This document shows, piece by piece, positions 7,044-28,621 of a DNA stretch of 64,000 bases. The notes under the pieces were generated by a model. The model ran no database searches. It was not told where the DNA came from and saw only the letters and a program-made list of their open reading frames with translations. Source of the stretch: Frankiaceae bacterium (GTDB lineage: Bacteria; Actinomycetota; Actinomycetes; BP-191). Positions within the stretch are counted from its first letter, which is position 1. Each line of letters starts with the position of its first letter. The stretch covers positions 173 through 64,172 of the forward strand of contig JAVEEC010000020.1 of NCBI GenBank assembly GCA_030840645.1. Direction: 5' to 3'. A program made the translations under genes and the position numbers.

Positions 7044-9717
<2,674 letters not shown>

Positions 9718-9738
9718 GCCCGGACCCTAGCGCCAATT

Positions 9739-10663: not shown

Positions 10664-10867
10664 CTAGACCGGGGAGCAGATCACGACCCAGGGGCCGGTG
10701 TCGGTGAAGCCGTTGTTGAACACCGTGCGGGTGCCGGCCGGGCAGGTGAACGTCTGGCAGCGGCTGTCGAGCGAGATGCAGGTCAGGGCCACACCGGCCG
10801 CCGTGGCCGGGGCCGCGGTGACGGCCGCGAGGGCGAGGCCGGCGGCGAGAGCGAGTACGCGCAGCAT
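10664..10867 (-). CDS. Small secreted 4-Cys peptide (67-aa precursor, ~43-aa mature)
   Basis: ATG 10867 with GGAGGA 3 nt upstream. Signal peptide MLRVLALAAGLALAAVTAAPATAA, then GVALTCISLDSRCQTFTCPAGTRTVFNNGFTDTGPWVVICSPV. Its 5' 85 nt overlap the tail of the adhesin gene in another frame. Confidence 0.55.
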   Translation of the reverse strand: MLRVLALAAGLALAAVTAAPATAAGVALTCISLDSRCQTFTCPAGTRTVFNNGFTDTGPWVVICSPV

Positions 10868-13800
10868 GGTTCCTCCAGAGGTGAGATAGCGGCTCGGCGG
10901 GCGAGGGTCAGGGCGGCGGCGCCGAGGGTCAGCAGCGCGAGGCCGAAGGCGGTCAACGGCACCGGGTCGCCACCCGTGGCCGGCAGCGCGGGCACCGGCG
11001 CGGCGACGGCGGACACGATCAGCGTGTCGGAGTTGTCGGCCGGGTTGCGGTCCGCGGCGGACGAGACCACCGTCGCGGGGTTGGTCAGCCGGCCGCCGGT
11101 CACGACGCGAGTGACGACGGTGATGGTCGACACCGCCCCCGCGGCCAGCGGCCCGGCGTGGACGCAGGTCACGACCTGGCCGGCCGCAGAGCAGGCCCAG
11201 CCGGGGCCGGACGCGGCGGTGAAGGTGAGGCCGGCGGGAAGTGTGTCGACCATGGTGACCGGGCCGGGCGCGGCGGAGAGCCCGGCGTTCGAGACGACCA
11301 GGTGCCAGGTCGCGTCGGCGCCGACGACGGCCGGGCCGACGATCGTCTTTCTGAGCCTCAGGTCGACGTCGGGTACGACCTGCGTCGAGTCGGTGGCGTG
11401 GTTGTCGGCCGGGTTCAGGTCCGGCGCCGGGCTGGCCACGTCGGCGACGTTGACGCTGGTCGCCGCGGCGGTGGGGCCGACGGCGACGACCAGCGTGATC
11501 GCCGACGACGCCCCCGCGGCGAGCGGGCCGGTGAAGGTGCAGGTGACGGTGCGCGCCACGGCCCCGCACACCCAACCGGTGCCGGTGCCGCTGACGTAGG
11601 TGAAACCGGCGGGCAGCGCGTCCGTCAGGGTGACCGCGGCCGCCGCCGACGGGCCGTGGTTGGTGACCGTCAGCAGGTACGTCCCCCGCTCGCCGACCCG
11701 GAACGCGCCCGTGTGCGACTTGGTCACGGCCAGGTCGACGGACGGGACCACGAGCGTCGGGTCGTCGTCGGCGTTGTCGGTCGGGTCGGGGTCGGTGGCC
11801 GGGCCGCTGACCTCGACGTGGTTGACGGCGGTGCCCGCCGCGGCCGGGCCGACGGAGACGACGAGCGTGATCGTCACGCTCGCGCCGTTGGCCAGGGCGG
11901 CGGCCCGGGTGCAGGTGACGGTCTGGGCAGCGGCCGTGCAGGTGAACCCGCCGCCGCCCGCGGACACGAACCCGAGGCCGGCCGGCAGCGTGTCGACCAC
12001 GGTGATCGGCCCGGTCGCCTCGGTCGGGCCTTCGTTGCCGACGGTGAGGGTGTAGGTGCCGTTGGTGCCGACGCCGAAGCTCCCGGCGTGCGTCTTGGTC
12101 ACCGTCAGGTCGGCGCGCGGCTCGACCGTGGCCGGGTCGGACGCCGTGTTGTTGCTGGTCACGGGCTCGTTCGTCCCGGCCGGCGTGTCGACCGTCGTGA
12201 CGTTGGTGACCGAGGGGTACGCCGCCGCCCCGACCGTCGCCGTGACGGTGATGGGCGGCAGCGTGACACCGATGCCTACGCCCCCGGCACGCGTGCACGT
12301 GACCGCCTGCGCGACGATCCCGCACGTCCAGCCGGTGCCGGACGCCCCGGTCGGGGTCAGGCCGGCCGGCAACGGGTCGTGCACGGTGACCGTGCCGGTG
12401 GCGGCGGACGGGCCGTTGTTGGCGACCGTGATCGTGTACGACGCCGTCCCGCCGACGAGGAACGTCCCGGTGTGGCTCTTGCCGATCGCCAGGTCCACGG
12501 TCGGGGTCGCCGGGTCGGACGCGGTCGAGGTGTCGTTGGCGGGGTTCGGGTCGAGCGTGGGGCCGTCGACGGCGGCCGTGTTGTCCACGACCGAGCCGAC
12601 GGTGGCGCCGACGTCGACGGTGACCGTGACGACGGAGTCGGGCCCGGTCGCCAGCGACCCGGCGTGCGTGCACGTGACGTCCTGTCCGGTCGCCGCGCAG
12701 GCCCAGCCGGTGCCGGTACCCGAGACGAACGTGAGCCCGGTCGGCAGCGTGTCGGTCACGACGATCGGCCCGGCCGCCGTGGAGGGGCCCGCGTTGCTCA
12801 CCGTGAGCGTGTAGCCGGCCTGCTGGCCGACCACGAACGTCCCGGTCGCGGCCTTGACGATGCCGAGGTCGGCGACGGGGACCACCGTCGTCGGGTCGGC
12901 GGAGGTGTTGTTGCTCGGGTCCGGGTCCGCCGTGGCGCCCGGGTCGACAGCGGCGGTGTTGGTCACGCCGCCCTCGGCGGCGGTCGTGACGGCCACCGTG
13001 AGCGTGATCGCGGGCAGGCTGCTGCCCGCCGCGAGCGGCCCGGCGTGCGCGCAGGAGACCGTCGCGCTTCCCGTGCAGGTCCACCCGGTCCCGGCCGCCG
13101 ACACGAACGTAAGGCCCGGAGGCAGCGTGTCCGTCACGGTGAACGGCCCGGCCGCGGCCGACGGGCCGTCGTTGCCGACCAGGATCGTGTAGGCGGCGTC
13201 CGAGCCGACCAGGAACGCGCCGGCGTGGCTCTTGGTGATCGTGACGTCGGCCGAGGGGACGGCGGTGACGTCGGAGGTCGCCGTGTTGTTCGACAGGTCC
13301 GGGTCGAACGTCGCGCTGGTCACCGACGCCGGGTTGGTGACCGTGGAGGCGGCGTCCGCCGTCACGGTCGCCACCACGGTGATCGGCGGCAGCGCCGACG
13401 CATTCGCCAGCGCCCCGGCGCGGGTGCAGGTGACCGTGCCGGCGGCCTCGCCGCAGGTCCAGCCGGTGCCGCCGGCCGAGACGTACGTCGTGCCGGCCGG
13501 CAGCGTGTCCGTCACGGTGATCGGCCCGGCCGCCGCGGCCGGACCCGCGTTGCTCACGGTGACGGTCCATGACGCGTCGTCACCGGCCGACACGGTCGGC
13601 GTGCTCGTCGTCTTGGTGACGACCAGGTCCGCCTGCTGCTGGTAGCCGAAGTCGGCGCCGGTCTCGGCCTCCCCCGGCGTGAGCGTGGTGGCGATCGTCG
13701 CCGCGGTCGTGGCGACGTACCCGGGGGGCAGGCCGCCGGTCACGGCCACTGCGTAGGCCCCCGGCGGCAGCCCGGGGATGGCGTAGACGCCGGAGCCGTT

Positions 13801-15681
13801 GGTCGTGCCGGTGAACGCGCGGTCGTCGGGCGTGCCCGCCGTGCCGTCGAAGCCGGCCCAGGTCGCGGTGACCGTGACGCCCGCGATCCCGGGCTCGCCG
13901 CCGTCCTGGACGCCGTCGCCGTCGAGGTCGTTCCAGACGCGGTCGCCGATCGAGGCGGTGCCCGTGTAGCCGAAGTCGGCCGTCAGGTCCTGCTGACCCG
14001 CGCCGAGCGTGACCGGGAACGGGTCCGTCCCCGCCGTGAGCACGAACCCCGCCGGCCCGACCGGGTCCACCTGGTACTGGCCGGCCGCGAGCCCGGTGAA
14101 CAGGTACCCGCCGTTGGCGTCGGTCGTCGTGTCGGTGATCTCGTCGTCGGCGGTACTGAAAGTGTCGTCCGCGCCGGCCCAGACCAGCCGGACCGGGACG
14201 GCGGGGAACCCGGGCTCCCCGGCGTCCTGCGTCCCGTCGCCGTCGGCGTCGTAGAACACCAGGTTGCCGATGGCGCCGGTGCCGACCACGTCGACGTCCG
14301 TCGCGACCGCGGGGGTGAAACTGTTGCCGAACGAGTCCTGGTACGCGACCGACACGTCGTTGGTCAGCGGGCCGGTCGCCCCGGTGTCGACGGTGACGGT
14401 GACGGCCAGGGTCGCCGACGCCCCTGCGTTCATGGCGCCGGTCAGCGTGGCCGTGACGACGCCCGCGCTCGCGCCGCACGTTCCCGTCGCGGGAGCGACG
14501 AAGCCGCAGCTGATGAACGTCGTGCCGGCCGGCAGCGTGTCGGTGGCGACGACCGCGGTGGCGGCGCCCGGGAGGACCGGGTCGCCGGTGTTCGTGATGC
14601 CGACGGTGTAGGTGAGGGTGTCGCCGGAGGCAGCCACCGCCTCGCCGTCGCTCTTGGTGACGTCCAGGGCCGGCGCCGGGGGCCGCGCGGAGAACGCGGG
14701 GACGTTGAACTGCCCCTCCTGGATGAACTGGTTGCCGCTGCTCACGCACGAGCTGATCCGCCACCAGCCCGCCTCGGGGTTGGTGATGACGTCCCCCGCG
14801 CCCCGGCTGACCGCGTTGCTGACGTTCCACGTCGCGCTCGGGGCGGAGACGGTGCCCGCGGTGACCGTGCCGCTCGGGGACACGTAGTTGACCGCCGAGC
14901 CGGGGATCGCCGTGAGGTCGTAGTCGAAGTTGTGGATGTTCATGGTCGCCTGGCCGGGCCCGACGAACTCGTAGAGGTCGATGCAGGCGTTGGCGCCGGA
15001 GTTCTGCTGGTAGGAGACCGCCGACTGGCCGACGACCAGCTCGTCGTTCGTGCCGGGGACGCCGTCGAGGTCGTCGACCGGCGCGGTCGCGACGTTGCTG
15101 TCCGCGTCGAAGCCGACCCGGATCCGCCAGCCGTTCTGGTCGTCGGTGGCGGTGGCGCTGCGCACGACGTACGTACCGCAGGTCACCGGGCTGAGCGTGG
15201 CGAAGCGCACCCAGGCCTCCGCGACCCCGGTCGCCGACGGCGGGTAGCTGGTGAGCAGCGTGCCGGTGCCAGGCGCGGGCTGGTCGAAGCCGGGGCCGAC
15301 CGGCGTGCCCGGCCCGTAGAGCTCGAACGTCGTGGTGTCGAGGCTGCCGGCGCCCTCGTCGTGCGTGGTCAGCGCGGCCGCGTCGGCGTTCATCTCCGGG
15401 CTGAACAGGTCGACGGTGACCGGCGTGGTCGTCGGCCACCCGCACGGGACCGCGAACTGGACGTAGTGGTAGCCGGCGCCCGCACCGGGGGCCGCGGAGG
15501 CGTACCAGTCGCCGTTGCCGAGGGCGGCGCCGGGGCCGTTGGTCTGGAAGAAGAACGGCGAGCCGGTCGGCGGGATCTCGGCCGCGGCCGCCGCGCCGGC
15601 CGACCCGACCTGGCCCGCGATCAGCACGACCGCCGCCGCCGCGGCGCGCGACAGCACGGGTGCCCAACGTCGCCGGGTCAT
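10783..15681 (-). CDS. Giant LPXTG-anchored surface protein (unknown N-domain, 8 DUF11 repeats, 2 SdrD-B/Cna-B-like domains)
   Basis: Start set at ATG 15681 (MTRRRWAPVLSRAAAAAVVLIAGQVGSAGAAAAA signal). Two SdrD-B-type modules: GNLVFYDADGDGTQDAGEPG... and GDRVWNDLDGDGVQDGGEPG.... Eight ~90-aa DUF11 units (..VTDTLPAGLTFVS..GTGWTC....VTCT..). LPATG (10972..10986), then a hydrophobic helix and ARR. Confidence 0.9.
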   Translation of the reverse strand: MTRRRWAPVLSRAAAAAVVLIAGQVGSAGAAAAAEIPPTGSPFFFQTNGPGAALGNGDWYASAAPGAGAGYHYVQFAVPCGWPTTTPVTVDLFSPEMNADAAALTTHDEGAGSLDTTTFELYGPGTPVGPGFDQPAPGTGTLLTSYPPSATGVAEAWVRFATLSPVTCGTYVVRSATATDDQNGWRIRVGFDADSNVATAPVDDLDGVPGTNDELVVGQSAVSYQQNSGANACIDLYEFVGPGQATMNIHNFDYDLTAIPGSAVNYVSPSGTVTAGTVSAPSATWNVSNAVSRGAGDVITNPEAGWWRISSCVSSGNQFIQEGQFNVPAFSARPPAPALDVTKSDGEAVAASGDTLTYTVGITNTGDPVLPGAATAVVATDTLPAGTTFISCGFVAPATGTCGASAGVVTATLTGAMNAGASATLAVTVTVDTGATGPLTNDVSVAYQDSFGNSFTPAVATDVDVVGTGAIGNLVFYDADGDGTQDAGEPGFPAVPVRLVWAGADDTFSTADDEITDTTTDANGGYLFTGLAAGQYQVDPVGPAGFVLTAGTDPFPVTLGAGQQDLTADFGYTGTASIGDRVWNDLDGDGVQDGGEPGIAGVTVTATWAGFDGTAGTPDDRAFTGTTNGSGVYAIPGLPPGAYAVAVTGGLPPGYVATTAATIATTLTPGEAETGADFGYQQQADLVVTKTTSTPTVSAGDDASWTVTVSNAGPAAAAGPITVTDTLPAGTTYVSAGGTGWTCGEAAGTVTCTRAGALANASALPPITVVATVTADAASTVTNPASVTSATFDPDLSNNTATSDVTAVPSADVTITKSHAGAFLVGSDAAYTILVGNDGPSAAAGPFTVTDTLPPGLTFVSAAGTGWTCTGSATVSCAHAGPLAAGSSLPAITLTVAVTTAAEGGVTNTAAVDPGATADPDPSNNTSADPTTVVPVADLGIVKAATGTFVVGQQAGYTLTVSNAGPSTAAGPIVVTDTLPTGLTFVSGTGTGWACAATGQDVTCTHAGSLATGPDSVVTVTVDVGATVGSVVDNTAAVDGPTLDPNPANDTSTASDPATPTVDLAIGKSHTGTFLVGGTASYTITVANNGPSAATGTVTVHDPLPAGLTPTGASGTGWTCGIVAQAVTCTRAGGVGIGVTLPPITVTATVGAAAYPSVTNVTTVDTPAGTNEPVTSNNTASDPATVEPRADLTVTKTHAGSFGVGTNGTYTLTVGNEGPTEATGPITVVDTLPAGLGFVSAGGGGFTCTAAAQTVTCTRAAALANGASVTITLVVSVGPAAAGTAVNHVEVSGPATDPDPTDNADDDPTLVVPSVDLAVTKSHTGAFRVGERGTYLLTVTNHGPSAAAAVTLTDALPAGFTYVSGTGTGWVCGAVARTVTCTFTGPLAAGASSAITLVVAVGPTAAATSVNVADVASPAPDLNPADNHATDSTQVVPDVDLRLRKTIVGPAVVGADATWHLVVSNAGLSAAPGPVTMVDTLPAGLTFTAASGPGWACSAAGQVVTCVHAGPLAAGAVSTITVVTRVVTGGRLTNPATVVSSAADRNPADNSDTLIVSAVAAPVPALPATGGDPVPLTAFGLALLTLGAAALTLARRAAISPLEEPCCAYSLSPPASPSRPSPRPRPRRPVWP
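11030..13630 (-). repeat. Tandem ~270-nt coding repeats (DUF11 units 2-8 of the adhesin)
   Basis: Seven consecutive units share the K-x-H/T-x-G-x-F-x-V-G ... N-x-GPS-x-A-x-GP-x-TV-x-DTLP-x-GL-x-F skeleton. Boundaries are approximate. This generates long shadow ORFs in other frames. Confidence 0.7.
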
Positions 15682-15921
15682 CGCAACAGCGAACCTCGCC
15701 TCGGTCGGCCCCCGTAGTGGTCGCGAGGATTCGATCAGGTCGCCGAACGATTCGCAACGATCATCACGGCGTGTCGGACGTATCCCTGCGGTTACCCGGA
15801 ACCCGACACGCGACGGCCGTCGCCCGGCGCCCGCCCGCCTCGCGACGGGGGCCGTGCGGTGCCGGAAGCCCCGTTTCGCCCGGCACCGCACGGTCGTATG
15901 CCATCAACCTCTACTTGAGGT

Positions 15922-16887
15922 TTAGCCGATCAGGGTCTCCTTGACCATCTGCAGGGTCGGGCGCTGGGCGCCCTTGATGAACACGCTGATGTCGATCTTG
16001 TTGAACCCGGGGACGGTGTTCGGCAGCTTCTTGAACGCGGCGAAGTTGTCGCCGCAGTACTGCCAGAGCGCGATCTCCTCGAGGTCGAACGCCTGGAGGC
16101 CGTTGCGCACCATCGACGACGTGTAGCTCGGGTTCCAGACGACGTCGCAGCCCATCTTGTCGTTCGTGATGCCGAGGTCACGCATCGCGCCGCGGCCGTA
16201 GAGCATGACGTTGCGGCCGGTCTGCTCGCGGAGGCGGTTGGCGCACTCGGTCGCGCAGTCGATGACCTGCTGGGCGCTCGCCTTGCGGTTCGGGTGCTTC
16301 TCGCCGCCGAGCTCGACGTCGATGACCGGCAGGATGTCGCCGCTCGGGTCCCAGCCGCCGGCGGTCTCGATCGCCTGGAGGTACGCGTCCGCCTGGTCCG
16401 CGCCGCTCAGCGTGAGCTGGAGGAACAGGTACGCGCCCCGGAACCAGCTCACGCCGTACCGGTCGCCGCCCGCGTCGCGCACGAGCGGCCAGTTGTGCGT
16501 GAACCAGCCCTTGTCGTTGAACCGCAGGCCGTCCCACGCCTTGAGGATGGCCCCGCAGAAGCCGGGCGTGGCGAGCAGCGTGGCCCACGGCGGCTCGAAG
16601 CCGCTGTCGAGGGAATACTGGTCGACGAACAGGTACGGCGGCCCCGGGTCGTCCTGGTCGACGCCGTCGGTGCTCTCGGTGGCGGCGACGGTGGTGTCCG
16701 GCTCGGTGTCGCCCTCGGTCTCGGTCTCGAGGACGCGTTCGCGCTCGGTCTCGTCCTCCATCTCGATGTCCGCGGGGTCGACGCTCGTGTCCGTCGTGCC
16801 GGTGTCGGTCCCGCCGGTAACGGTCGTGCCGGTGTCCGTCCTGTCGGTGTCGGTGGTGTCGAGCGGTGTCTCGTCCATCTCGGTCAT
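15922..16887 (-). CDS. GH25-family muramidase domain with ~85-aa Thr/Asp/Glu-rich N-terminal tail, no signal peptide
   Basis: Collinear with Streptomyces GH25 lysozyme (cellosyl): FRGAYLF, DQADAYL, AGGW, LPVIDVE (DxE catalytic motif), LWQY...IDISVF. The N-terminus is MTEMDETPLDTTDTDRTDTGTTVTGGTDTGTTDTS.... GGAGG sits 8 nt before ATG 16887. Confidence 0.75.
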   Translation of the reverse strand: MTEMDETPLDTTDTDRTDTGTTVTGGTDTGTTDTSVDPADIEMEDETERERVLETETEGDTEPDTTVAATESTDGVDQDDPGPPYLFVDQYSLDSGFEPPWATLLATPGFCGAILKAWDGLRFNDKGWFTHNWPLVRDAGGDRYGVSWFRGAYLFLQLTLSGADQADAYLQAIETAGGWDPSGDILPVIDVELGGEKHPNRKASAQQVIDCATECANRLREQTGRNVMLYGRGAMRDLGITNDKMGCDVVWNPSYTSSMVRNGLQAFDLEEIALWQYCGDNFAAFKKLPNTVPGFNKIDISVFIKGAQRPTLQMVKETLIG

Positions 16888-16930
16888 GGTGCGGTCCTCC
16901 TCTGTAGGGCTCCCCCGTGCCGGCCGCGAT

Positions 16931-18448
16931 CTACGGCCAGCTGAGTGAGTCGTCCGGGTCGGGAGCCTTCGGCAGGGTGCGGCAGACGAACGCGAGCACG
17001 TAGATCTCGTCCGGGTCGCTGGTGGTCTCCGTGGACTCCGGCGGCGGCGGCGGGAGCGTGTGGCGCGGCGGCAGCATGATGCCGAGCCGCGTGCTCGTGA
17101 TCCGGCTGAGGAGCAGGTCCTTGGCGAACGGCCGCCCGGTGGCGCGGATGCCGGTCGTCACGATCGGTGACTCCCCGGCTACGCTCTCGCGCGCGATCAG
17201 CGGCCGGGCCGCCATCCGGGCGAACGACCCCCGCATCGCGACCCGCGAGACCGTCGGCTCGGCGGGCGGGGCCGCGGCCGGCTCGGCGACCGCCGTCGCG
17301 CGCAGCGCCAGCGTGTACGGGCGGGCGCGCAGGCTCGTCGCGGCACTGAGCTTGGCGATCGGCAGGAACCCCAGGCTCGGGGTGGTCCCGGCCGCTGCCG
17401 GGCGGCGGACGGTGATGTTGCGCGCGAGGACCAGCCCCGTGACGTACGCCGCGCACTCCCCCGCGGGCGGCGTCGCGCCGTCGGAGAGGACCCGGTCCTT
17501 GTCCCGGAACCGCCAGGCGCGCGACGCCAGCGCGCCCGGCGTGAACCATGGCCGGCTGACCGTCACCGTCGAGTACTGGAACGACACCGACTCGACCTCG
17601 GCGTCGTCGCTCGACTCCAGGCGGGCCCGCAGCTCCGCGGGCGCGCTCGCGGAGAGCGCGGCCAGTTCCTCGCGCGTCGCGGTGATGGTCGGCCAGGCCG
17701 CGTCGACGACGTCGGACGGCAGGTACCCCGTCGGGACGAACGACGACCCGTCGGGCGACGTGCGGAAGTAGATCTCCGGCAGGTCCGGGTCGTACTGCTT
17801 GCGGTAGTCGGCCCACGCCGCCGCCGGGGACCGCGAGGCGAGGTCGCGCAGCACCCGCCGCGCGTCGCCGACCTCGTCCCGCCTGCCCGCGACCGCCCAG
17901 TCCTGCTCCGCCTCGTCGACGGCCCCCTTGAGCTTCGGCTCGTCGGCCGCCCAGGCCTTCGCCACCTCGGCGTCGGTCGAGACGGCGGCCTCGCTCTTGC
18001 GGTTGTTGTACTCCTGGATGGCGGCGAGGTAGGCGTCGCGGCGCTGCTCGTACGTCACCACGACGGCGGACGCCGTGACGGTCCCGTCGCCGGCGACCTG
18101 GTACAGGAGGTCGTACGCCGTCCGGTACTTCTGCTCCTCGGCCTCGGTGCGCGGCGGCGCGTCGGCCAGGTCGGAGTGCGCGAGGACGTCGCCGTAGACG
18201 TCCCAGAGCCGGTCCCCGTCGGGCTGCCAGAGCGGCCCGGCGGGGATCTCGTTGACGAGCAGCGAGAACTCGGTGAGCGCCTGCGCGCCCTCCGGGCTGA
18301 ACGGGTCCGCGACGAGCGCCTTCAGGCGGCTCGCCTCGATCCCGACCGGCCCGAGCGGGAAGCTGAGGTAGGTCCCCTCCTCCGCGAACACGGTCGCCGC
18401 CTTGCCGGCGAGCCCGAGCACCACGGTGGCGTCGATGCCTGTGGACAC
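16931..18448 (-). CDS. Hypothetical protein, paralogue of 18488..19951 (505 aa, no signal peptide)
   Basis: GTG 18448 with a GGAGGAGAGGG RBS. Collinear motifs shared with the upstream gene (AYLAAIQEYNNRK; AEVESVSFQYSTVTVSRPWFTPGALASRAWRF; LSDGATPPAGE). No family recognised. Confidence 0.75.
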   Translation of the reverse strand: MSTGIDATVVLGLAGKAATVFAEEGTYLSFPLGPVGIEASRLKALVADPFSPEGAQALTEFSLLVNEIPAGPLWQPDGDRLWDVYGDVLAHSDLADAPPRTEAEEQKYRTAYDLLYQVAGDGTVTASAVVVTYEQRRDAYLAAIQEYNNRKSEAAVSTDAEVAKAWAADEPKLKGAVDEAEQDWAVAGRRDEVGDARRVLRDLASRSPAAAWADYRKQYDPDLPEIYFRTSPDGSSFVPTGYLPSDVVDAAWPTITATREELAALSASAPAELRARLESSDDAEVESVSFQYSTVTVSRPWFTPGALASRAWRFRDKDRVLSDGATPPAGECAAYVTGLVLARNITVRRPAAAGTTPSLGFLPIAKLSAATSLRARPYTLALRATAVAEPAAAPPAEPTVSRVAMRGSFARMAARPLIARESVAGESPIVTTGIRATGRPFAKDLLLSRITSTRLGIMLPPRHTLPPPPPESTETTSDPDEIYVLAFVCRTLPKAPDPDDSLSWP

Positions 18449-18487
18449 GATCCCTCTCCTCCCGATCGGGCCGGTCGTCCGGCCGGG

Positions 18488-19951
18488 CTAGACGAAGTCG
18501 GCGTCCTTCAGCTCTTCGAGCGGGTTCGGGGCCTTGCCGATCAGGTGGTTGACGAACCCGATGATCTGCATGCCGCCGACCTTGAGCGTCTGGCCGTCGT
18601 CCGTGGACTCGGTCTTGTTGTGGTGCTCGTCGTGCGCGTAGCCTCCGGAGAGCCGGAACGGGCCCCAGCCGACGCTGGCGTTCGCGTCCACGTGCGACTT
18701 CACGTCGTGGTACTTGGACACGAACTCCTTCGACTCGATCTCTACGTTGCGCACGAAGATCGCCTGCGTCGCGTACCCGATGAACTCGCCCTTCGGCGGC
18801 GCGCCGCCATCCGACGGCAGGTCGCTGAAGTTCCAGCCCTCCCCCTTGCGCAGCGTCCAGCCGCGGTTGGCGAACCACTCCGGGTAGAACCACGGCCGGA
18901 CGATGACCGCCTGGGCGAGGTCGAACGAGAGCCGGAACGACTCGACCTCGGTGCTGCCGTCGACCTCGGTCTTGGTGCTGTTGACGCCGCCGCTGGCGGA
19001 GAACAGCCCGAAGTTCACGCCGCCGCCGGCGTTCCACGACGTGGACGACTCGTCGGTCGTCGACACCTGGTGCAGGTGGCTGACGCCGAGGTTGGTCCAG
19101 CCGCCGGCCGTCGCGATGTTGCCGGGGACCAGGGTCGTGTAGCGGAACGGGATCGGAACCTCGGTGCTGGTGACGACGCCCTTCTCGTACGCCTCCTCGA
19201 GGCTCTGCTTCCAGAGCACCATGCTGCGCTCGGTGGTCTGGTTGATGAACGCGTTGATCTCGTCGACGTCGTTGCGGTAGCCGCCCGAGGTCCACGCGTC
19301 GGCCGCGGCCTTCACCTTGAGGGCATACGTCTGCGCGTTCATCGACCAGTCGGCGACCGCCGCCTTGCCCTCGGGGCCGGTCGCGCCCGCGGCCGCCGCG
19401 CGCTTGGCGTTGTACTCGGTGGTGGCCGCGAGGTAGGCGGCCATCTTCTCGTTGTACGCCCGCAGCAGCGGGCTCTCCTCGATGACCTCCTTGACCTCGT
19501 CGGTCACCAGGTCGGTGACCTTCTTGGTCACGAACAGCTTGCCGCGCAGCTGCTCCAGCTTCTGCTTCTCCTTGTCGGTCAGCTCGGTGCTGACGACTTT
19601 GGAGAAGCGCAGGATCTGGCGGTACATCTCGCTGAGCCGCTTCTCCGCGTCGGGCTTGTACATGCCCTCCTGGCGGTCGTTGCTGTACGGCGCCCCGGCG
19701 TCGGGGATGAAGTCGAGCAGCATCGAGAGCGCGAACGCGTGGCTGAGGCGGGTGTTCATCTCCTCGGCGGTCGGCGCGGAGTAGATGCCCTTGGCGCAGA
19801 AGTCGAGGTCGGCCTCGGTGAACGGCAGGCCGGGCATCGCCCAGGTGAAGAACGTGTTCTTGGGGGGCTGCACGGTGTCGTCGCCACCCATGACGGTGTG
19901 GTAGATCTGGGAGGTCAGCGCCTTGCCCATGTCGTTCAGGGGGTAACCCAT
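18488..19951 (-). CDS. Hypothetical protein, paralogue of 16931..18448 (487 aa, no signal peptide)
   Basis: ATG 19951 (MGYPLNDMGK...) with GGAGG 8 nt upstream, overlapping the previous stop. The ORF-track N-extension to 20527 overlaps the hemopexin gene and is Arg-rich shadow. Helical Lys/Glu-rich N-half and beta-rich C-half, with a Gly/Ser/Thr stretch SWNAGGGVNFGLFSASGGVNSTKTEVDGS. Confidence 0.75.
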   Translation of the reverse strand: MGYPLNDMGKALTSQIYHTVMGGDDTVQPPKNTFFTWAMPGLPFTEADLDFCAKGIYSAPTAEEMNTRLSHAFALSMLLDFIPDAGAPYSNDRQEGMYKPDAEKRLSEMYRQILRFSKVVSTELTDKEKQKLEQLRGKLFVTKKVTDLVTDEVKEVIEESPLLRAYNEKMAAYLAATTEYNAKRAAAAGATGPEGKAAVADWSMNAQTYALKVKAAADAWTSGGYRNDVDEINAFINQTTERSMVLWKQSLEEAYEKGVVTSTEVPIPFRYTTLVPGNIATAGGWTNLGVSHLHQVSTTDESSTSWNAGGGVNFGLFSASGGVNSTKTEVDGSTEVESFRLSFDLAQAVIVRPWFYPEWFANRGWTLRKGEGWNFSDLPSDGGAPPKGEFIGYATQAIFVRNVEIESKEFVSKYHDVKSHVDANASVGWGPFRLSGGYAHDEHHNKTESTDDGQTLKVGGMQIIGFVNHLIGKAPNPLEELKDADFV

Positions 19952-19962
19952 CTCTTGGCCTC

Positions 19963-21213
19963 CTACGGCTTGCCGGGGAAATACAGGACGTTGCCGTCGA
20001 GGCCCTTGGCCCGGACGGTGGCCGCGTTCGTGAACAGGTCCACGTCGGCGTCGTTGCGGGGCTTCACGCCGGGGTTCCCGGCCTCGCTCATGCGGCACTC
20101 GGTCGCCGCGCTCGCCCAGTCCTGGGCGCGCGCCGCGGCCGCGAACTTCGGCCATCCCGACGCGAAGGCGGGGCCGAGCGCCCAGGCCATGCTGTGCAGG
20201 CCGAGGCGGGCGTCGGCCGGGTAGGAGTCCCAGTCCGGGAACGCCGCCCGCAGCGTGGCCTCGTTGGCGTCGAACTTCGTGTGCATCAGGTCGTCCATCC
20301 CGGCCTCGGTGAGCTTGAGGCTGGTCACCTTCTCCGCGGCGCGGTGGCCCTTCTGCGCGAGGCTGGTGTCGGCCTTGACCGCGCGCCACTCGGCGCTGAT
20401 CTCGTCGCGCGTCGCGGGCGAGCCGTCGCTCTTGTGCACGAACGGCAGCCCGAGGGCGGCCGGCTCGGGGTCGATGAGGTTGCCGACGGCGACCGTCACC
20501 AGCGCCTTGACGTCCAGGTACATCCACGGGACCCGGCCCTCGAACCGCGTCGTGAACGCGGGGAACGCGTCGCGGACGCTCGTGGCGCTGCCCGCGGGCG
20601 CGTGCGGCGTGACCGCGGCGCCGATCGGCAGGCCGTTCCAGCCGTCAACGATCGGGCGCGGGTAGCCGTCGTACGCGCGGTCGTTGGCGACGTCGTACTT
20701 GACGTACTCGTCGCCCTTGAAGAAGAACACGTCGCCGGTCGGCCACGCGACGGCCGCCTCGATGCCCTCGGTGAACACGCCGGGCCAGCTATCCGCGATC
20801 TTTTGCGGGTACCCCTCGGCGGCTCCGTCGTTGGCGACGTCGTACTTGACGTACTCGTCGCCCTTGAAGAAGTACGCCGACTCCCCGCCCGGCCAGAGCA
20901 CGGCCGCGTCGATGCCGTCGGTGAACACGCCGGGCCAGTTCTCCGCGATCGACCTCGGGTAGCCGTCGGCGACCTTGTCGGCGGTCATGTCGTACTGGAC
21001 GTAGTCCGTTCCCCTGAAGAAGTACCCGTTCCCGTCCGGCCACTCCAACGCCGCGTCGATGCCGTCGAACAGCCCCGCCCAGGCGCCCGCGATCGGCTGC
21101 GGGTAGCCGTCGTCGACGGCGTCGGCCGCGATGTCGTAGCGGACGTAGTCAGGTCCGGTGAAGAAGTACGCGTACTCCTTGCCAGGTCCGACCAGCCCGG
21201 TGAGCTTGGTCAT
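19963..21213 (-). CDS. Hemopexin-like four-blade repeat protein fused to a lysozyme-like (T4/GH24-type) domain, no signal peptide
   Basis: Four repeats of the type YAYFFTGPDYVRYD...GYPQPIAGAW (also FFRGTDYVQYD..GYPRSIAENW, FFKGDEYVKYD..GYPQKIADSW, FFKGDEYVKYD..GYPRPIVDGW). The C-half has FEGRVPWMYLDVKALVTVAVGNL (E-x8-D-x5-T lysozyme-like motif). Start at ATG 21213 with a GGGAGAGG RBS. Confidence 0.7.
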   Translation of the reverse strand: MTKLTGLVGPGKEYAYFFTGPDYVRYDIAADAVDDGYPQPIAGAWAGLFDGIDAALEWPDGNGYFFRGTDYVQYDMTADKVADGYPRSIAENWPGVFTDGIDAAVLWPGGESAYFFKGDEYVKYDVANDGAAEGYPQKIADSWPGVFTEGIEAAVAWPTGDVFFFKGDEYVKYDVANDRAYDGYPRPIVDGWNGLPIGAAVTPHAPAGSATSVRDAFPAFTTRFEGRVPWMYLDVKALVTVAVGNLIDPEPAALGLPFVHKSDGSPATRDEISAEWRAVKADTSLAQKGHRAAEKVTSLKLTEAGMDDLMHTKFDANEATLRAAFPDWDSYPADARLGLHSMAWALGPAFASGWPKFAAAARAQDWASAATECRMSEAGNPGVKPRNDADVDLFTNAATVRAKGLDGNVLYFPGKP

Positions 21214-21437: not shown

Positions 21438-21490
21438 GCGTTCTGTGCAGCCCACCCGCCCCCCTTGAGCGTGCTGATCTTCACAGAACG
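21438..21490 (+). repeat. Copy 2 of the 53-nt inverted-repeat element
   Basis: gcgttctgtgcag...gagcgtgctgatcttcacagaacg. 10-bp stem when 21438/21491 are included. Contains the TGA (21481..21483, minus strand) of the 936-aa BNR protein. Confidence 0.7.
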
Positions 21491-24291
21491 CATCGGCGCG
21501 GCCGGGTTCGGGTCCGGGTACGCAGCGCGGTGGCGGTGGCAGCGGCGGCGACCAGCCCGGCGAGGCACTGGACGGCGGCGAGGGCGGCGTCGCCGTCCCC
21601 CGGACGTGACGCGGCGAGCGAGGAGTCGCCGATCCGCTCGCGGGCGACCTGGACCCGCTCCTGCTCGGTGAGGGCCAGGCCTGCGTTGGGCTGTGACCCC
21701 TGCTGCGCGTTGGCCTGGCCCTGGCCCTGCCCCTGCGACTGCGTCTGCGGCTGGGTCTGGGGCTGGAGCTGGATGGGCGCGGGCGGCGCGGCGGCCACGC
21801 CGGGCAGCGCAGCGACGACGGCCGGGGGGCGCTCGTTCCCTGCGGGCCGGGAACGCGGCCCCGGGTCGGCGGCCGGGATCGCGACGGCGACCTCGCCGGT
21901 TGCGCGGGAGGGGTCGTAGGCGGCACCGGCGCCGGCGAACGTCGCGACGACCGGCTCCGTCCTGATGGCCGGCCGGGCAGCCGGGCGGCCCGGCGGCCGG
22001 TAGGCCCGGCACGCGATCCCCGCCGCGTCCGTGCGGGCAGCGCCGAGGGAGCGACCGGCCACGGCCAGGCTGACCGGCTGGCCGGGGAGCGGGCTCCCGG
22101 ACGGGAAGGTGAGCCGGGCGCACACGTCGGCACTCGTACCGAGGCGGATGGCGGGCCGGCCGAGGACGGCGAGCCGGGTGGGCGACCCGCACAGGCCGGC
22201 CGGGCTCTGGAACGCCGCGAGCAGGGTGTCGCTGACCCGCAGCCACACCGCCGGGACGGGGTACGTCGCGGAGTCGCAGGCGAGTGACGCGCTGTCGACG
22301 CTCGAGGTCGGCGGATGGGAGTACACGCCGAGCGTGCGGCAGCCACGGTCGATCCGGACGATGGTGACGCCGTCGTACCAGTCGACGAGTGCGGTGCCGT
22401 CGCCGAGGGAGACGATCGCCCGGGCGCCGTCGGGCTTCGCACCGCTCTGGATCGGGGCGTATGGGGTGCCGTAGCCCGTGTACGAGCAGCCGCCGGTCAG
22501 CTCCCCGCGCTTGTTCACGAACGAGATGGTGCGGCCGAGCTCGCTACCGAGCCAGAAGTCGTCGCGGGTGGGGTCGTAGGCCCACCGGCAGGACGGGTCG
22601 CAGGCGTAGATGAACAGCCTGGTCGTGGCACCGGTGCGTGGGTCGAACCGCGCCACCCCCGACCGGTAGAAGTAGGGCTCCTTGGTGCCCGATCCGCCCA
22701 CCATCGGGTGGTCGGCGTTGGCGAACAGGTACAGCGACTGGCGCGGCCGGTCCCAGCTGTAGGTGACCGTCCTCATGTCGCCGGCGAGCGGCATCGGCCG
22801 GTCGGCGTGCATACCGGTCGTGCTCACCCGGTGTACCGCGGCGACCCACTTGCTCGTGCCCGCAACGGTGAACAGCAGCGACTCCCCGTCGAACGCGAGC
22901 TGCCGGCCGCTGTCCTTCGGCACCGGCAGGACGCCCAATGGCAGCAGCGGCGTGCGAGGGAGCCCACCCGGCGGCGGCGTCCGTCCCCGCGAGGGCGTGG
23001 GGGGGTCGTCCGGCGGCCGCACCGTGGACGAGGTCGTCAGCCGGTAGGTCCGGCCGTCGCGCGCGCAGCGGACCAGGAACGCCGCCTGACGGCTCCCCGA
23101 CACGCGCAGCGCCTCGGGTCGGCACGCGTCGGGCAGCCCGCGCCACAGCCCCGTGATGCTCCGGCCGGAGCCGTCGAACAGCACGATCGTCCTGTCGACG
23201 AGCACCACGGCGCGGTTCGGTCGGTCGTGCGGGTCATGGATCGTCAGGCAACGGTCGTCCGGCTCGGCAGCGCACGGCGGCTCGCCCGGCACTGCGCGGA
23301 TCCCGGTCACCGCGGACCTCTGGAGCCCGGCGGTCGTGTAAAAGGACCCGCCGGCGCCGCCGCGGCGGCTGTCCGCATAGAAGAGACCGTTGTTGACGGA
23401 CGTCGCCCAGAACACCGGACTCGGCGGCAGGTACGCGGCGTTGCCCCGCGCCGCCACCGGCACCATCGCCGCATCCTGGACCATGCTCGGCGAGGAGCCG
23501 TTGATGGTGTCGCTGTGCCAGGTGTCCCGTGGCGCGGTCGTGTCCCACTGCCGGCCCAGGTGGAACCACATCCGTGCCGCGGCTGGGTCGGCGCCCGCGC
23601 GCGGGTCACCGTCCTGCGACGGCGCGCTGACCGCGTACTCCCACCCCGATGCGTCGTCCACGAACAGGCGCGTGAACAGCATCGGCGGTACCGGAGCGCC
23701 CTCCCAGAGACCCAGTGAGGAGCGCGGCCGGAACGTCGCGCCGCCGTCGGTACTGCCGTACAACGTCGGGACCCCGGGCACCGGCGACCGCACCGACACC
23801 AGCACGTTGCGGCTCTGCCGCGTCGTACCGTACGTCTGCCCGGCCGTCGCCGCGACGACGTCGCCGCCCACCCGGGGCACGCCGTTCGCCGACAGGAACA
23901 GCGGCGACGTGAAGGTCTCCCCGCCATCCGTCGTCAGCAGGACACCGCCGTCCTGCAACGCCACCAGCGCCCGCCGCTCGCCCATCCGCTCGGTGAAGAG
24001 CCCCACCGCCGGCGTCGCCAGGCTCAAGCGGCGCAGCCAGCGAGCGCCGCCGTCCGCGGACACCCAGACGTCCGACGCGGTGACCGCGAGCATCCGGCAC
24101 GGGTCCTCGTCGAACTGGTCCACCGCGACGACCGGTGCGCGGTCCGGCACGTCCACCGCCCGCCAGCGCCACGGCGCGTCCTCCGCGACGCAGGACGGCG
24201 GCACCGCGCGCGCCGTGACGACAGGTACGGCGAGCCCGAGAACGCCCGCCACCACCGCGACTCGCACCAGCCTCGCCGACACGTGACTCAC
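21481..24291 (-). CDS. Large secreted BNR/Asp-box beta-propeller protein with Gln-rich linker and C-terminal membrane anchor
   Basis: 936 aa. Signal peptide MSHVSARLVRVAVVAGVLGLAVPVVTARA. Asp-boxes SADGGARW, TTDGGETF, STDGGATF. QLQPQTQPQTQSQGQGQGQ low-complexity tract. C-terminal hydrophobic helix plus RTRTRTRPRR. The GTG start overlaps the upstream stop (GTGA). Confidence 0.8.
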   Translation of the reverse strand: MSHVSARLVRVAVVAGVLGLAVPVVTARAVPPSCVAEDAPWRWRAVDVPDRAPVVAVDQFDEDPCRMLAVTASDVWVSADGGARWLRRLSLATPAVGLFTERMGERRALVALQDGGVLLTTDGGETFTSPLFLSANGVPRVGGDVVAATAGQTYGTTRQSRNVLVSVRSPVPGVPTLYGSTDGGATFRPRSSLGLWEGAPVPPMLFTRLFVDDASGWEYAVSAPSQDGDPRAGADPAAARMWFHLGRQWDTTAPRDTWHSDTINGSSPSMVQDAAMVPVAARGNAAYLPPSPVFWATSVNNGLFYADSRRGGAGGSFYTTAGLQRSAVTGIRAVPGEPPCAAEPDDRCLTIHDPHDRPNRAVVLVDRTIVLFDGSGRSITGLWRGLPDACRPEALRVSGSRQAAFLVRCARDGRTYRLTTSSTVRPPDDPPTPSRGRTPPPGGLPRTPLLPLGVLPVPKDSGRQLAFDGESLLFTVAGTSKWVAAVHRVSTTGMHADRPMPLAGDMRTVTYSWDRPRQSLYLFANADHPMVGGSGTKEPYFYRSGVARFDPRTGATTRLFIYACDPSCRWAYDPTRDDFWLGSELGRTISFVNKRGELTGGCSYTGYGTPYAPIQSGAKPDGARAIVSLGDGTALVDWYDGVTIVRIDRGCRTLGVYSHPPTSSVDSASLACDSATYPVPAVWLRVSDTLLAAFQSPAGLCGSPTRLAVLGRPAIRLGTSADVCARLTFPSGSPLPGQPVSLAVAGRSLGAARTDAAGIACRAYRPPGRPAARPAIRTEPVVATFAGAGAAYDPSRATGEVAVAIPAADPGPRSRPAGNERPPAVVAALPGVAAAPPAPIQLQPQTQPQTQSQGQGQGQANAQQGSQPNAGLALTEQERVQVARERIGDSSLAASRPGDGDAALAAVQCLAGLVAAAATATALRTRTRTRPRRCVL

Positions 24292-25685
24292 GCCTTGCCT
24301 TCGTACCGCTCGAACGTGTCCGGCGTCGACGCGAAGAACACCCGCCGAGGCGTCACCGTCGAGATCGAGGGCGCAGTCACCCAGCGGCGCTTCGGGTCAC
24401 AGCAGGACCCATGTGGCACCGCGTACCTGCCGGACACGTCGATCCAGGGGTTCTTCGCCCGCGCCCGCAGCCGCGTCCAGGACAGGATCCAGAGCTTGTT
24501 GCCGGGTCCGGCGGCGACCAGGTCGTGCGGGTTGCTGCCCGGGAACAGCCGGTTGTAGTTGGGGTAAGCCCGGCCGGACGTGTACATCGCCGGCTCGTCG
24601 AAGTCACCTTCAGGGACACGGGGGAACGTCGCGCCGCCGTCGTCCGAGCGGTACATCCTGTTCCCCTGGTAGAGCGCGTAGACCCGGGCCTTGTTCGCCC
24701 CCGGGAGCGCGACGGCGAGGACCTGGGCCACGTACGAGGCGTTCGGGTTGCCGACGTTGGTCGGCCGCTGCCACGTCGCGCCGCCGTCCGTCGAGTGCCG
24801 GAAGTCGCCGTACCCGTACGCGTCGAAGCAAGCGCTCTCCGTGCAGTCGCCCTCCCAGAGCTCGTTCGCGTTCAGCGGGTTGACGGCCAGGAAGATCTGG
24901 CCGTCGTGGCGGGAGTCCCCGACGTCGCTGACCGACTGCACACTCCAGTGCGCTCCGCCGTCTTTGCTGCGGTAATAGAGCTTGCCGCCCTGCGGGCGGA
25001 GCTGCACGCCGAGGTAGACGACGTTCGGGTCCCGCGGCGCGACCGCCAGGGTCGCGCTCCAGGCCGACGAGGGCGTCTGGCCGGCGCTGGGGACCGCGGC
25101 GTTCACGTCGAGCTGGGAGTAGGTCCAGTGGTCGGCGCCGTTGCGGCTCGTCGCGACCACCACCCCGCCGCTCGGCCCGTCGACGATGACGAGGTGCACG
25201 CGCGCGTGCACCGACTTCGCGTCGGGTGTGACGATGCCGGTGATCGTCATCGCGTCGTACGTCGTGCGGACCGAGCTCACGTCCGGCGACGGCGGCACGT
25301 CGACCAGCGCCGTCAGGCCGCCCGTGCTGAACGTCTCCTTCCAGGTGCAGCCACCGTCGGCCGAGCGGAGCAGCGACCTGCCGTTCGTCACGTAGAGGAC
25401 CCGCGCGTCCCACCGGTCGACGCCGGTCGCGTTGACGTTCTCGCCGCCCTGGCCGCCGAAGGGGTACAGCGTGCCGAGCTTCGACGGGTCGGCCAGCACG
25501 TCGCGGAACGCCGGGTACTTGATCGTCGTCCAGCCGCCGCCGCGCGGCGTGATCTGTCCCTTGACCGAGCAGCCGGCGGCGCGCGCCGGGCCGACGGAGG
25601 GCGGGGCGGCCAGCGTCGCCGCAAGCGCGGCGACGGCCAGGAGCCGGAACATGCCGGTCCGGCCGGCGATCGTCGAGAGCTGCAT
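24288..25685 (-). CDS. Secreted BNR/Asp-box repeat (sialidase/GH74-like fold) protein
   Basis: Asp-boxes SADGGCTW, SRNGADHW, SKDGGAHW, STDGGATW, SDDGGATF. Start chosen at ATG 25685 (GAGGA upstream). Alternative starts are GTG 25700 or ATG 25652 (MFRLLAVAALAATLAAPP signal). Confidence 0.8.
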   Translation of the reverse strand: MQLSTIAGRTGMFRLLAVAALAATLAAPPSVGPARAAGCSVKGQITPRGGGWTTIKYPAFRDVLADPSKLGTLYPFGGQGGENVNATGVDRWDARVLYVTNGRSLLRSADGGCTWKETFSTGGLTALVDVPPSPDVSSVRTTYDAMTITGIVTPDAKSVHARVHLVIVDGPSGGVVVATSRNGADHWTYSQLDVNAAVPSAGQTPSSAWSATLAVAPRDPNVVYLGVQLRPQGGKLYYRSKDGGAHWSVQSVSDVGDSRHDGQIFLAVNPLNANELWEGDCTESACFDAYGYGDFRHSTDGGATWQRPTNVGNPNASYVAQVLAVALPGANKARVYALYQGNRMYRSDDGGATFPRVPEGDFDEPAMYTSGRAYPNYNRLFPGSNPHDLVAAGPGNKLWILSWTRLRARAKNPWIDVSGRYAVPHGSCCDPKRRWVTAPSISTVTPRRVFFASTPDTFERYEGKA

Positions 25686-25758
25686 CGGAACCGTCCTCAC
25701 TTTCCGGCCTTCACGACCACAGTGACCGCGCTCCGAACGACCATTGCGCCACCCATTC

Positions 25759-28390: not shown

Positions 28391-28621
28391 TCACGACCCC
28401 TCGTCCGGGCCCCGGGCGACGACCCAGAGAACGAACTGCGTCCGGCTCGTGACCTCGGCCCGCCGGTAGAGCCGGTGGATCCGCCACTTGACCGTGCCCA
28501 GGGGCATGCCGAGCGCGCGGGCGATCGCCCGGTTGTCCTCCCCGGCGACGACCAGGCTGACGATGCGCCGGTCGGTGTCGTCCTCGACGAGGCGCCGGCG
28601 GTAGCGCGGGCTGGGCTCCAC
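28391..28621 (-). CDS. Stand-alone LuxR-type HTH protein (76 aa)
   Basis: RIVSLVVAGEDNRAIARALGMPLGTVKWRIHRLYRRAEVTSRTQFVLW matches the LuxR/GerE C-terminal HTH pattern. No receiver or ligand domain. Confidence 0.65.
   Translation of the reverse strand: MEPSPRYRRRLVEDDTDRRIVSLVVAGEDNRAIARALGMPLGTVKWRIHRLYRRAEVTSRTQFVLWVVARGPDEGS

Follow-up and report, generated by a model that had tools for sequence, protein, structure and literature searches.

How peptidoglycan hydrolases without an export signal reach the cell wall, and which proteins might let them pass, is the question raised by a four-gene operon (g1 to g4) in the 64,000-nucleotide stretch of a Frankiaceae bacterium genome analyzed here (contig JAVEEC010000020.1; the whole stretch is called the window). 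Two of its genes encode hydrolases or probable hydrolases, and the other two, g2 and g3, encode soluble paralogues of an undescribed protein family for which we tentatively propose a role in membrane permeabilization. Sequence comparison identifies the g2-g3 pair as the conserved entity, and the four-gene layout of the window as one local solution. The operon comprises the following features.

19963-21213, minus strand: g1, 416 amino acids, leaderless, with a four-blade hemopexin domain and a probable T4-lysozyme-like domain.
18488-19951, minus strand: g2 (A-type), 487 amino acids, no signal peptide or transmembrane helix, of a family without known match.
16931-18448, minus strand: g3 (B-type paralogue), 505 amino acids, GTG start, with the core fold of g2 but without its Gly-rich hairpins.
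15922-16887, minus strand: g4, 321 amino acids, leaderless GH25 muramidase (Pfam Glyco_hydro_25).
15852-15893, minus strand: terminator-like hairpin at the end of the operon, with a 14-bp perfect inverted repeat.

Inspection of the open reading frames placed g1 to g4 co-directionally on the minus strand within positions 15922-21213, with a GGAGG- or GGAGA-like ribosome-binding motif 6-10 nt 5' of every start codon. The spacers within the operon were 11, 39, and 43 nt long, and the gaps to the flanking genes were 267 and 240 nt. The terminator-like hairpin started 29 nt past the g4 stop codon, its region folded at -48.4 kcal/mol (z = -3.87; 0 of 200 shuffles were equally stable), and no comparable hairpin was found between the genes from g1 to g4. 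Because this hairpin lacks a U-tract, it was not reported by a consensus terminator scan; on such high-GC DNA, consensus scanning for promoters and terminators was uninformative. The G+C content at third codon positions (GC3) was 0.97-0.98 in all four genes. Taken together, the ribosome-binding motifs, short spacers, 3' hairpin, and uniform GC3 supported a single transcription unit, and we concluded that g1 to g4 are one operon, as a first-pass annotation of the sequence had claimed. The lower G+C content of g2 stemmed from its amino-acid composition; recent transfer as its cause was ruled out by a GC3 of 0.98, which is like that of the neighbors.

No signal-peptide-like N-terminus was found in g1 to g4 by inspection of the N-termini and Kyte-Doolittle profiles, and the highest 19-residue Kyte-Doolittle mean was 1.39, with no segment above 1.4; the reported absence of signal peptides and transmembrane helices therefore holds for all four proteins. 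The cassette contained no small holin-like transmembrane open reading frame, as the 11-43-nt spacers fit none and the flanking gaps were read directly, and no spanin was found among g1 to g4. The neighbors in the window were ordinary chromosomal genes, in agreement with the earlier statement that phage genes are lacking nearby.

The relationship between g2 and g3 was evident from BLASTP (E = 2e-15, 24% identity over 320 amino acids) and from hhalign comparison of their family profiles, built from 49 g2-type and 36 g3-type sequences, which aligned nearly the whole core (probability 99.9%, E = 7e-32). The two proteins are thus paralogues, as had been claimed, and all the motif pairs quoted for them were present in the sequences. 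Searches of g2, g3, and 48 family members against Pfam, NCBIfam, PHROG, and PADLOC returned nothing consistent; the only faint signals in these scans, Fil_haemagg_2 and Porin_4, both came from Gly-rich segments. Against PDB sequences, phmmer and profile hmmsearch gave only coiled-coil noise from HlyD-type proteins. No published description of the family was found in the literature searched, and where g2-type or g3-type proteins were named, they were called "hypothetical protein" or were named after a terminal LysM domain. These results agreed with the earlier claim that the paralogues match no known family, and we concluded that the family has not been described before and that the tests applied relate it to no known family.

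Structure prediction with AlphaFold2 gave a fair model for g2 (pLDDT 74) and a confident model for g3 (core pLDDT >90, pTM 0.78). Fold comparison of the paralogues, which the first-pass annotation had proposed as a check, found no well-characterized family as a significant neighbor: Foldseek gave no match at E <= 0.001 for either model against the PDB or for g3 against BFVD. Bacterial gasdermins were the recurring top matches of both models, at noise level (E = 0.26-0.39, TM-score <= 0.25; best match E = 0.29 for g2 and E = 0.39 for g3), and their resemblance to the predicted structures is a lead only. The gasdermin family gave no PADLOC match in the 48 members and no Pfam match. A relationship of g2 to beta-pore-forming toxins, suggested by its Gly/Ser/Thr-rich stretch, was not upheld, as the aerolysin/ETX-MTX2, leukocidin, MACPF/CDC, and Toxin_10 families gave no Pfam match in the window proteins or, at E <= 1, in the 48 members, and no Foldseek match. 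Membership in Pepco or EACC1 was rejected because g2 and g3 have 487 and 505 amino acids compared with ~100-130 and have no protease neighbor; by every test of membership, g2 and g3 fell outside the gasdermins, Pepco, and EACC1. A weak WXG100 match was obtained for one of the 48 members (E = 0.17). Cyanobacteria, Proteobacteria, and Chloroflexota are not known to have type VII secretion systems, and the occurrence of the pair in these groups led us to reject g2 and g3 as type VII substrates. When ten superfamily members of unusual length were scanned for domains, one Tachylectin insert was revealed and nothing else.

The segments by which the two paralogues differ are the following.

18896-19045, minus strand: putative amphipathic beta-hairpin 1 of g2, residues ~303-352, TSWNAGGGVNFGLFSA...EVESFRLSFDLAQAVIVR.
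18548-18679, minus strand: putative amphipathic beta-hairpin 2 of g2, residues ~425-468, SVGWGPFRLSGGYAH...TLKVGGMQIIGFVNHL.
17087-17365, minus strand: hypervariable, disordered Pro/Ala/Arg-rich linker of g3, residues ~362-454, pLDDT <50.

Both g2 segments were rich in Gly, Ser, and Thr, and their alternating hydrophobic/polar pattern was kept across 49 homologues. The g2-type consensus was TSWnAGGGvNfGLFs ... VxxFxLSFxLxQxxIVR for segment 1 and SVGWGPFxLsGsYsH ... tLxVpGMQIIGF, with a conserved GWGPF.L.G.Y motif, for segment 2; both Gly-rich motifs persisted at ~25% identity in Proteobacteria whose g2-type protein has no partner. Hairpin 1 lay largely in the least confident part of the g2 model (residues ~291-330, pLDDT 26-51). 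A Gly/Ser-rich stretch restricted to g2 had been noted before, and the alignments confirmed this for two segments, both absent from g3. Their likeness to the pre-stem hairpins of toxins is compositional only, and their membrane insertion is putative. The g3 counterpart of hairpin 1 consisted of short helices, and that of hairpin 2 was either the disordered linker, which is hypervariable, or a lectin-like domain inserted there. This linker, which joins the core to a conserved strand at the C-terminus (...VYVLAFVCRTLPKAPDPDDSLSWP), could not be aligned among homologues, and a lectin or beta-domain occupied its site in other lineages. A ~90-residue four-helix insertion was present in the g2/g3 proteins. 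The residues invariant across both paralogues were Tyr, Trp, Gly, Pro, Leu, and one Arg, with no catalytic-type constellation; such a pattern suits a protein that binds or builds structure better than one that catalyzes.

Several further observations concern individual g3-type proteins. Cys332 (~17453-17455) and Cys489 (~16982-16984) of g3, which both exceed 90% conservation among g3-type proteins and are absent from the g2 type, flank strands that the g3 model places in one sheet; a conserved disulfide between them was rejected as unlikely, as the cysteines were lost independently in the homologues P0181 and P0190/P0191. In Streptomyces g3-type proteins (L019 9530-11062 and others; L numbers denote loci), a folded-looking, beta-rich insert of ~120 amino acids with no assigned family replaced the linker (...TWTLDLDNGIAGGDMNTADLWWEW...VLVVQYGYDLQLRWVAY...). 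The metagenomic g3-type homologue P0214 (L058) carried a Tachylectin domain at the linker position, and P0167, a g3-type protein of 633 amino acids with an N-terminal RDD membrane domain (PF06271), was the only one of the members seen for which a membrane anchor is predicted.

We addressed the distribution of the family by tblastn searches with the domains of the window, which covered first 45 genome loci and later 52 non-redundant loci. An adjacent pair, g2-type gene followed by g3-type gene, was found in about 50 loci from at least five phyla, including Actinomycetota (Kribbella, Nocardioides, Streptomyces, Embleya, Gordonia, Mycobacterium, and Phytoactinopolyspora), Cyanobacteria (Alkalinema), Chloroflexota (Ktedonobacteraceae), Acidobacteriota (Solibacteraceae), and Betaproteobacteria (Roseateles and Massilia), and a divergent pair was found on a Rhizobium plasmid. 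An exhaustive profile search placed 2,448 clusters at 50% identity in the superfamily at E <= 1e-3, and 810 at E <= 1e-30. Close homologues of g2 numbered more than 190, at 47-80% identity, in several phyla. Identity to the window proteins was 51% for g2 versus 33-37% for g3 in Streptomyces, and 47% versus 31-32% in Proteobacteria, which indicates that, at the sequence level, the A-type evolves more slowly than the B-type. A more divergent branch of solitary g2-type genes (Acuticoccus plasmid, Methylovulum, Pirellulales of the Planctomycetota, and Conexibacter) kept both Gly-rich motifs and tended toward mobile-element contexts, and because the g2 type occurs alone in some Proteobacteria and Planctomycetota, the A-type is the autonomous unit. 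The codon usage of the pair fitted the host in every lineage checked, which argues that these copies of the module are not recent transfers. The four-gene unit was not borne out as the conserved entity: the pair was constant, the hydrolases were swapped, and GH25 recurred in L057 only. No tblastn match to the family was found in 50,697 phage genome records, and none in IMG/VR, where a single search pattern was used; with these results and the chromosomal neighbors, an origin from phage or a prophage remnant was rejected.

Three individual loci were noted in addition. On Acuticoccus plasmid p3 (L054 6185-9430), a solitary g2-type gene lay between two genes whose products carry signal peptides, a 252-amino-acid coiled-coil-like protein and an OmpA-family peptidoglycan-binding protein, with a restriction-modification/helicase cluster, an integrase, and a VapBC pair nearby. 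In a metagenome-assembled genome (MAG) of an uncultured actinomycetote (L014 6193-12575), g3-type, g2-type, g3-type, and divergent g2-type (29% identity) genes stood in tandem, which suggested local amplification of the module. A MAG labeled as a methanogen (Methanotrichaceae archaeon; L028) had, on a 208-kb contig, a pair 52% and 34% identical to the window proteins, which reflects either contamination during binning or transfer across domains.

The genes next to the pair connected it with peptidoglycan. In 31 of the 52 loci, a peptidoglycan hydrolase or binding domain was encoded beside the pair on the same strand, in at least seven kinds, so that the claimed link to peptidoglycan hydrolysis was not only confirmed but strengthened. 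A hemopexin gene adjoined the pair in 23 of the 52 loci, and its hydrolase domain was swapped between lineages: hemopexin was combined with a GH24-like module in the window, Kribbella, and two MAGs, and with a GH73 glucosaminidase (PF01832, E = 5e-25) in 16 Streptomyces/Embleya loci. The GH24-like module occurred in nine loci in all, as a separate gene in L005, L013, L041, and L045. Beside the pair we also observed Amidase_2 (three loci), GH25 (two loci, the window and L057, where it lies upstream of the pair), and a PG_binding_1/endolysin-like protein (L058). Many g3-type proteins carried a C-terminal LysM domain themselves (six loci), one carried PG_binding_1, and one had a Tachylectin domain inserted in the variable linker. 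All pair-associated hydrolases that were inspected lacked a signal peptide. That the pair stays constant while the muralytic module is exchanged strongly indicates functional coupling. No protease was found beside the pair in the annotated neighborhoods, a trypsin-integrase fusion 5 kb away in L061 being the only such gene. Hemopexin has been linked to extracellular contractile injection systems (PMC8213781); no contractile-injection genes were found in the window or related loci, and this link was dropped.

Two lineage-specific associations were also recorded. In Streptomyces and Embleya, a conserved leaderless protein of ~210-226 amino acids without Pfam match was encoded directly downstream of the g3-type gene in ~20 loci (L016-L033, L042-L044, and L048; tblastn E down to 1e-135), and the window lacks a counterpart; a fourth component of the module or an immunity factor is a possible identity for it. 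Kribbella alone among the genera, in each of its three genomes (L059 13393-15529, L003, and L004), had another association: genes for a FemAB-family peptidyltransferase and an alanine-racemase-like protein lay just downstream on the opposite strand. FemAB as a general immunity partner was rejected, since this synteny is confined to Kribbella.

The two enzymes of the window were analyzed by domain, as follows.

20599-21213, minus strand: N-terminal hemopexin domain of g1, residues ~1-205 (Pfam).
19963-20598, minus strand: C-terminal probable T4-lysozyme-like (GH24-like) domain of g1, on weak profile evidence.
16603-16887, minus strand: Asp/Thr/Glu-rich disordered N-terminal extension of g4, residues ~1-95.
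15922-16602, minus strand: GH25 domain of g4 (PF01183).

In g1, four Hemopexin repeats (PF00045) were found at E = 2e-39, with a score of 133.6 bits (cut-off 21.3), and the domain aligned with those of MMP-14 and vitronectin among PDB sequences (E = 1e-21). The C-terminal ~210 residues matched a PHROG endolysin family (E = 2e-4) and, across eight family members, gave no Pfam match even at E <= 5. A family profile of this domain yielded weak PDB matches, six of seven to T4-type lysozymes (E = 0.14-0.5), and hhalign found it collinear with T4 lysozyme over residues 9-136 (E = 5e-4, probability 31%). The motif FEGRVPWMYLDVKALVTV has a Glu, an Asp at +9, and a Thr at +15, the spacing of E11, D20, and T26 in T4 lysozyme, and it aligned to these catalytic residues in both the PDB and the hhalign comparisons; in eight homologues the Glu and Asp were invariant and the Thr position was Thr or Ser. 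We concluded that the domain is a probable GH24-like lysozyme. Of the hemopexin-lysozyme fusion described earlier, the hemopexin part is thus firm, and the lysozyme-like part is supported weakly by sequence, without a Pfam match. The g4 protein scored 36.2 bits against Glyco_hydro_25 (cut-off 27), its DxE motif IDVELGGE aligned with LDMEYGS of the solved muramidase 6zmv, and it matched a PHROG endolysin (E = 1e-4). The identification of g4 as a GH25 muramidase therefore stood, whereas the acidic disordered tail ascribed to it is an N-terminal extension. By tblastn, the GH25 gene was not syntenic in the closest relatives of the window.

To answer the question raised at the outset, the constant and the exchangeable parts have to be considered together. 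The lack of a signal peptide is the hallmark of endolysins, which depend on a partner that breaches the membrane; as the pair was the only constant partner and no holin was found, we proposed g2 and g3 as the membrane breachers. Our favored explanation, which we hold tentatively and at clearly less than even confidence, is that g2 and g3 form a soluble membrane-permeabilizing pair that acts inside the producer and gives leaderless muralytic enzymes access to the wall. The operon would then be the form that one lineage has of a module found widely and passed on horizontally, with the paralogous soluble pair as its core. The A-type would be the conserved effector, whose two Gly/Ser-rich segments may refold into membrane-inserting beta-hairpins and permeabilize the cytoplasmic membrane from inside, and the B-type may be a regulatory or targeting partner, acting through its hypervariable linker or its glycan-binding modules. 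Once the membrane is breached, the leaderless g1 and g4 would reach the peptidoglycan, and the producing cell, or a compartment of its hyphae, would be lysed without holin or phage. The fuller form of this proposal, a phylum-spanning, holin-replacing superfamily of pore-formers with a new fold, through which muralytic enzymes targeted by hemopexin or LysM are released and programmed lysis of cells or hyphal compartments proceeds from the inside out under transcriptional control, we consider somewhat less probable still. The inside-acting effector fits better than an exported one with proteins that are leaderless in Gram-positive and Gram-negative phyla alike and, in the latter, lie on plasmids or mobile elements. 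The conserved amphipathic segments of g2, the absence of catalytic-type residues, the solitary occurrence and slower evolution of the A-type, and, below significance, the recurring gasdermin matches also speak for it.

Several points weigh against this explanation. No significant similarity to a pore-forming family was found in sequence or structure, the gasdermin matches being at noise level; g2 and g3 showed no hydrophobic segment, no lipid-modification site, and no neighboring activating protease; and most non-actinobacterial loci had no detectable peptidoglycan hydrolase beside the pair. The LysM, PG_binding_1, and Tachylectin domains of B-type proteins are easier explained outside the cell. 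The predicted fold may be new relative to the PDB and BFVD, and a relative among predicted structures elsewhere is possible.

The glycan-binding modules lead to the alternative that survives best, namely an antibacterial binary toxin that acts from outside, which we consider unlikely. The B-type and the hemopexin-hydrolases would dock on the peptidoglycan of a competitor, and the A-type would insert into the target membrane; release would occur, for example, by lysis of a subpopulation or in vesicles, and the hydrolases would first open the competitor wall. Variable, swappable glycan-binding modules on the B-type are typical of the receptor-binding components of toxins, and the faster evolution of the B-type, the several different muralytic activities beside the pair, and producers from soil taxa known for bacteriolytic lifestyles all agree with such a toxin. 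Immunity to lysostaphin and zoocin A is conferred by FemAB-like proteins, and a FemAB-family gene adjoins the Kribbella module, just as the ~210-amino-acid Streptomyces gene after the pair could be an immunity gene. However, no export signal or secretion system was seen in the loci of any lineage, the FemAB linkage is limited to Kribbella, the window holds no candidate immunity gene, and the solitary A-type genes of Gram-negative bacteria have no wall-targeting partner and an outer membrane to cross. Thus, the toxin explains the glycan modules of the g3 type better, but the universal lack of an export route worse, than the model of a pair acting inside the producer.

It is more improbable that the pair is not membrane-active at all but binds or degrades the envelope, or scaffolds or regulates the muralytic enzymes, in the service of wall remodeling, separation of hyphae or cells, or germination. 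The strong and specific association with domains that bind and cleave peptidoglycan would suit this role, as would the B-type proteins annotated only through a LysM domain and the filamentous or developmentally complex nature of many host taxa, and pores rest on no positive evidence. However, a Sec or Tat signal is the norm for house-keeping enzymes that act on the wall in Actinomycetota, whereas the components of this module are all leaderless; core morphogenetic genes do not show such a patchy distribution across phyla with links to mobile elements; catalytic-type residues are not conserved; and this role offers no explanation for the conserved amphipathic Gly-rich hairpins. Holin-independent lysis, an antibacterial toxin, and wall remodeling, the options offered by the first-pass annotation, remain the right short list, and the evidence favors the first two without separating them.

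Least probable, in our judgment to the point of being remote, is abortive infection, in which the pair would be a latent death effector triggered by phage, in the manner of gasdermin, Pepco, or EACC1, and the muralytic enzymes would speed premature lysis: the cassette is mobile and patchy in several phyla, the Acuticoccus plasmid copy adjoins the restriction-modification/helicase cluster and toxin-antitoxin pair, the Methylovulum copy adjoins a Gp49/HTH toxin-antitoxin pair and a resolvase, and latent cytoplasmic pore-formers are an established defense logic (PMC12642450; bioRxiv 10.1101/2021.06.07.447441), but PADLOC models matched 0 of 48 members, no locus inspected had an adjacent protease, NTPase, or sensor gene, the actinobacterial loci lay outside defense islands, and glycan-binding domains are no feature of known abortive-infection effectors.

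The surroundings of the operon in the window contained the following genes.

28561-31464, plus strand: large AAA_16-TPR-GerE (LuxR-type) regulator, flanking the upstream trio.
28391-28621, minus strand: GerE regulator of 76 amino acids, flanking the upstream trio.
21481-28284, minus strand: trio of large co-directional genes without assigned function, directly upstream of the operon.
10783-15681, minus strand: repeat-rich surface protein of 1,632 amino acids with CLIPPER and SdrD_B repeats and a C-terminal hydrophobic, anchor-like end.
7044-9726, minus strand: FUR-family regulator gene directly upstream of a KatG-type catalase-peroxidase gene.

The trio encoded a 933-amino-acid protein with a weak BNR match and a signal-peptide-like N-terminus, a 465-amino-acid BNR/sortilin-like protein, and an 841-amino-acid NHL-repeat protein. 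Together with the GerE/LuxR regulators and the operon, it may form a larger co-regulated extracellular set; GerE/LuxR-type regulators were found upstream of the module in Kribbella and at greater distance in the window. The surface-protein gene began 240 nt downstream of the operon, beyond the terminator-like hairpin. The order of the FUR and catalase-peroxidase genes is the furA-katG arrangement typical of Actinomycetota; though ordinary, it agrees with the placement of the window in that phylum, to which the high G+C content and the closest relatives also point.

If pore formation and a new fold were true, g2 and g3 would approach a new class, and a function would be gained for ~2,400 clusters that are now hypothetical or misnamed after a terminal LysM. 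Bacteria would own a holin-free route that brings leaderless peptidoglycan hydrolases to the wall, which would bear on programmed compartment death in Streptomyces and other multicellular bacteria, on the release of leaderless autolysins, and on the exit of large proteins without a secretion system. Hemopexin propellers would join the cell-wall-binding modules of bacteria, and the pair would offer a new membrane-active scaffold and possibly an inducible lysis tool for high-GC Gram-positive hosts.

Comparison with known systems places the module among several of them. Holins provide the passage for muralytic enzymes in phages and in type 10 secretion systems, the domesticated form of phage lysis cassettes (PMC10847048, PMC10516005), as in the release of the Tc toxin by Yersinia entomophaga (PMC10847048) and with TcdE of C. 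difficile (PMC10516005). Like holin-endolysin cassettes and type 10 systems, the operon combines leaderless muralytic enzymes that have wall-binding modules with a non-enzymatic neighbor that would have to breach the membrane, and catalytic and binding domains are swapped in modular fashion; like the latter, it stands in a non-phage, chromosomal context. Unlike both, it has no holin or spanin, the candidate breachers being two soluble paralogues of ~500 amino acids; and, unlike in type 10 systems, no large leaderless cargo toxin was identified, and the family is absent from the 50,697 phage genomes.

Bacterial gasdermins (7n50, 7n52), Pepco, and EACC1 share with the pair a soluble, leaderless nature, a beta-sheet core, and a cross-phylum, mobile-element-linked distribution. 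As in gasdermins, two hairpins per protomer are proposed to insert from inside, and the disordered g3 linker with the conserved C-terminal strand on the core recalls an autoinhibitory tail. In contrast to gasdermins, g2 and g3 show no sequence similarity to them by PADLOC and no significant Foldseek match (E >= 0.26, TM-score <= 0.25), are twice the size, carry the four-helix insertion, have no adjacent protease, and are paired paralogues coupled to peptidoglycan enzymes. Pepco and EACC1 are small protease-gated effectors of ~100-130 amino acids encoded beside a protease (PMC12642450).

With bicomponent toxins such as LukS/LukF and pleurotolysin, the pair has in common tandem paralogues at ~25-30% identity, one more specialized for binding, and, by composition, putative Gly/Ser/Thr-rich amphipathic hairpin stretches. 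LukS/LukF and the CDC-like and MACPF toxins are secreted by signal peptides and belong to recognizable Pfam families and folds, whereas g2 and g3 are leaderless, match no such family, and have the hairpins in one paralogue only. A modular muralytic enzyme with a wall-binding domain, and in Kribbella a FemAB-type gene, recall lysostaphin, zoocin A, and enterolysin A. In S. pneumoniae, the leaderless autolysin LytA gains access to the wall only once the membrane is damaged (PMC12029793). Class III bacteriocins and LytA differ in that they have nothing corresponding to the g2-g3 pair and are not known to bind the wall through hemopexin. Taken together, the logic of the system resembles that of known lysis and pore-forming cassettes, and the protein family itself is undescribed.

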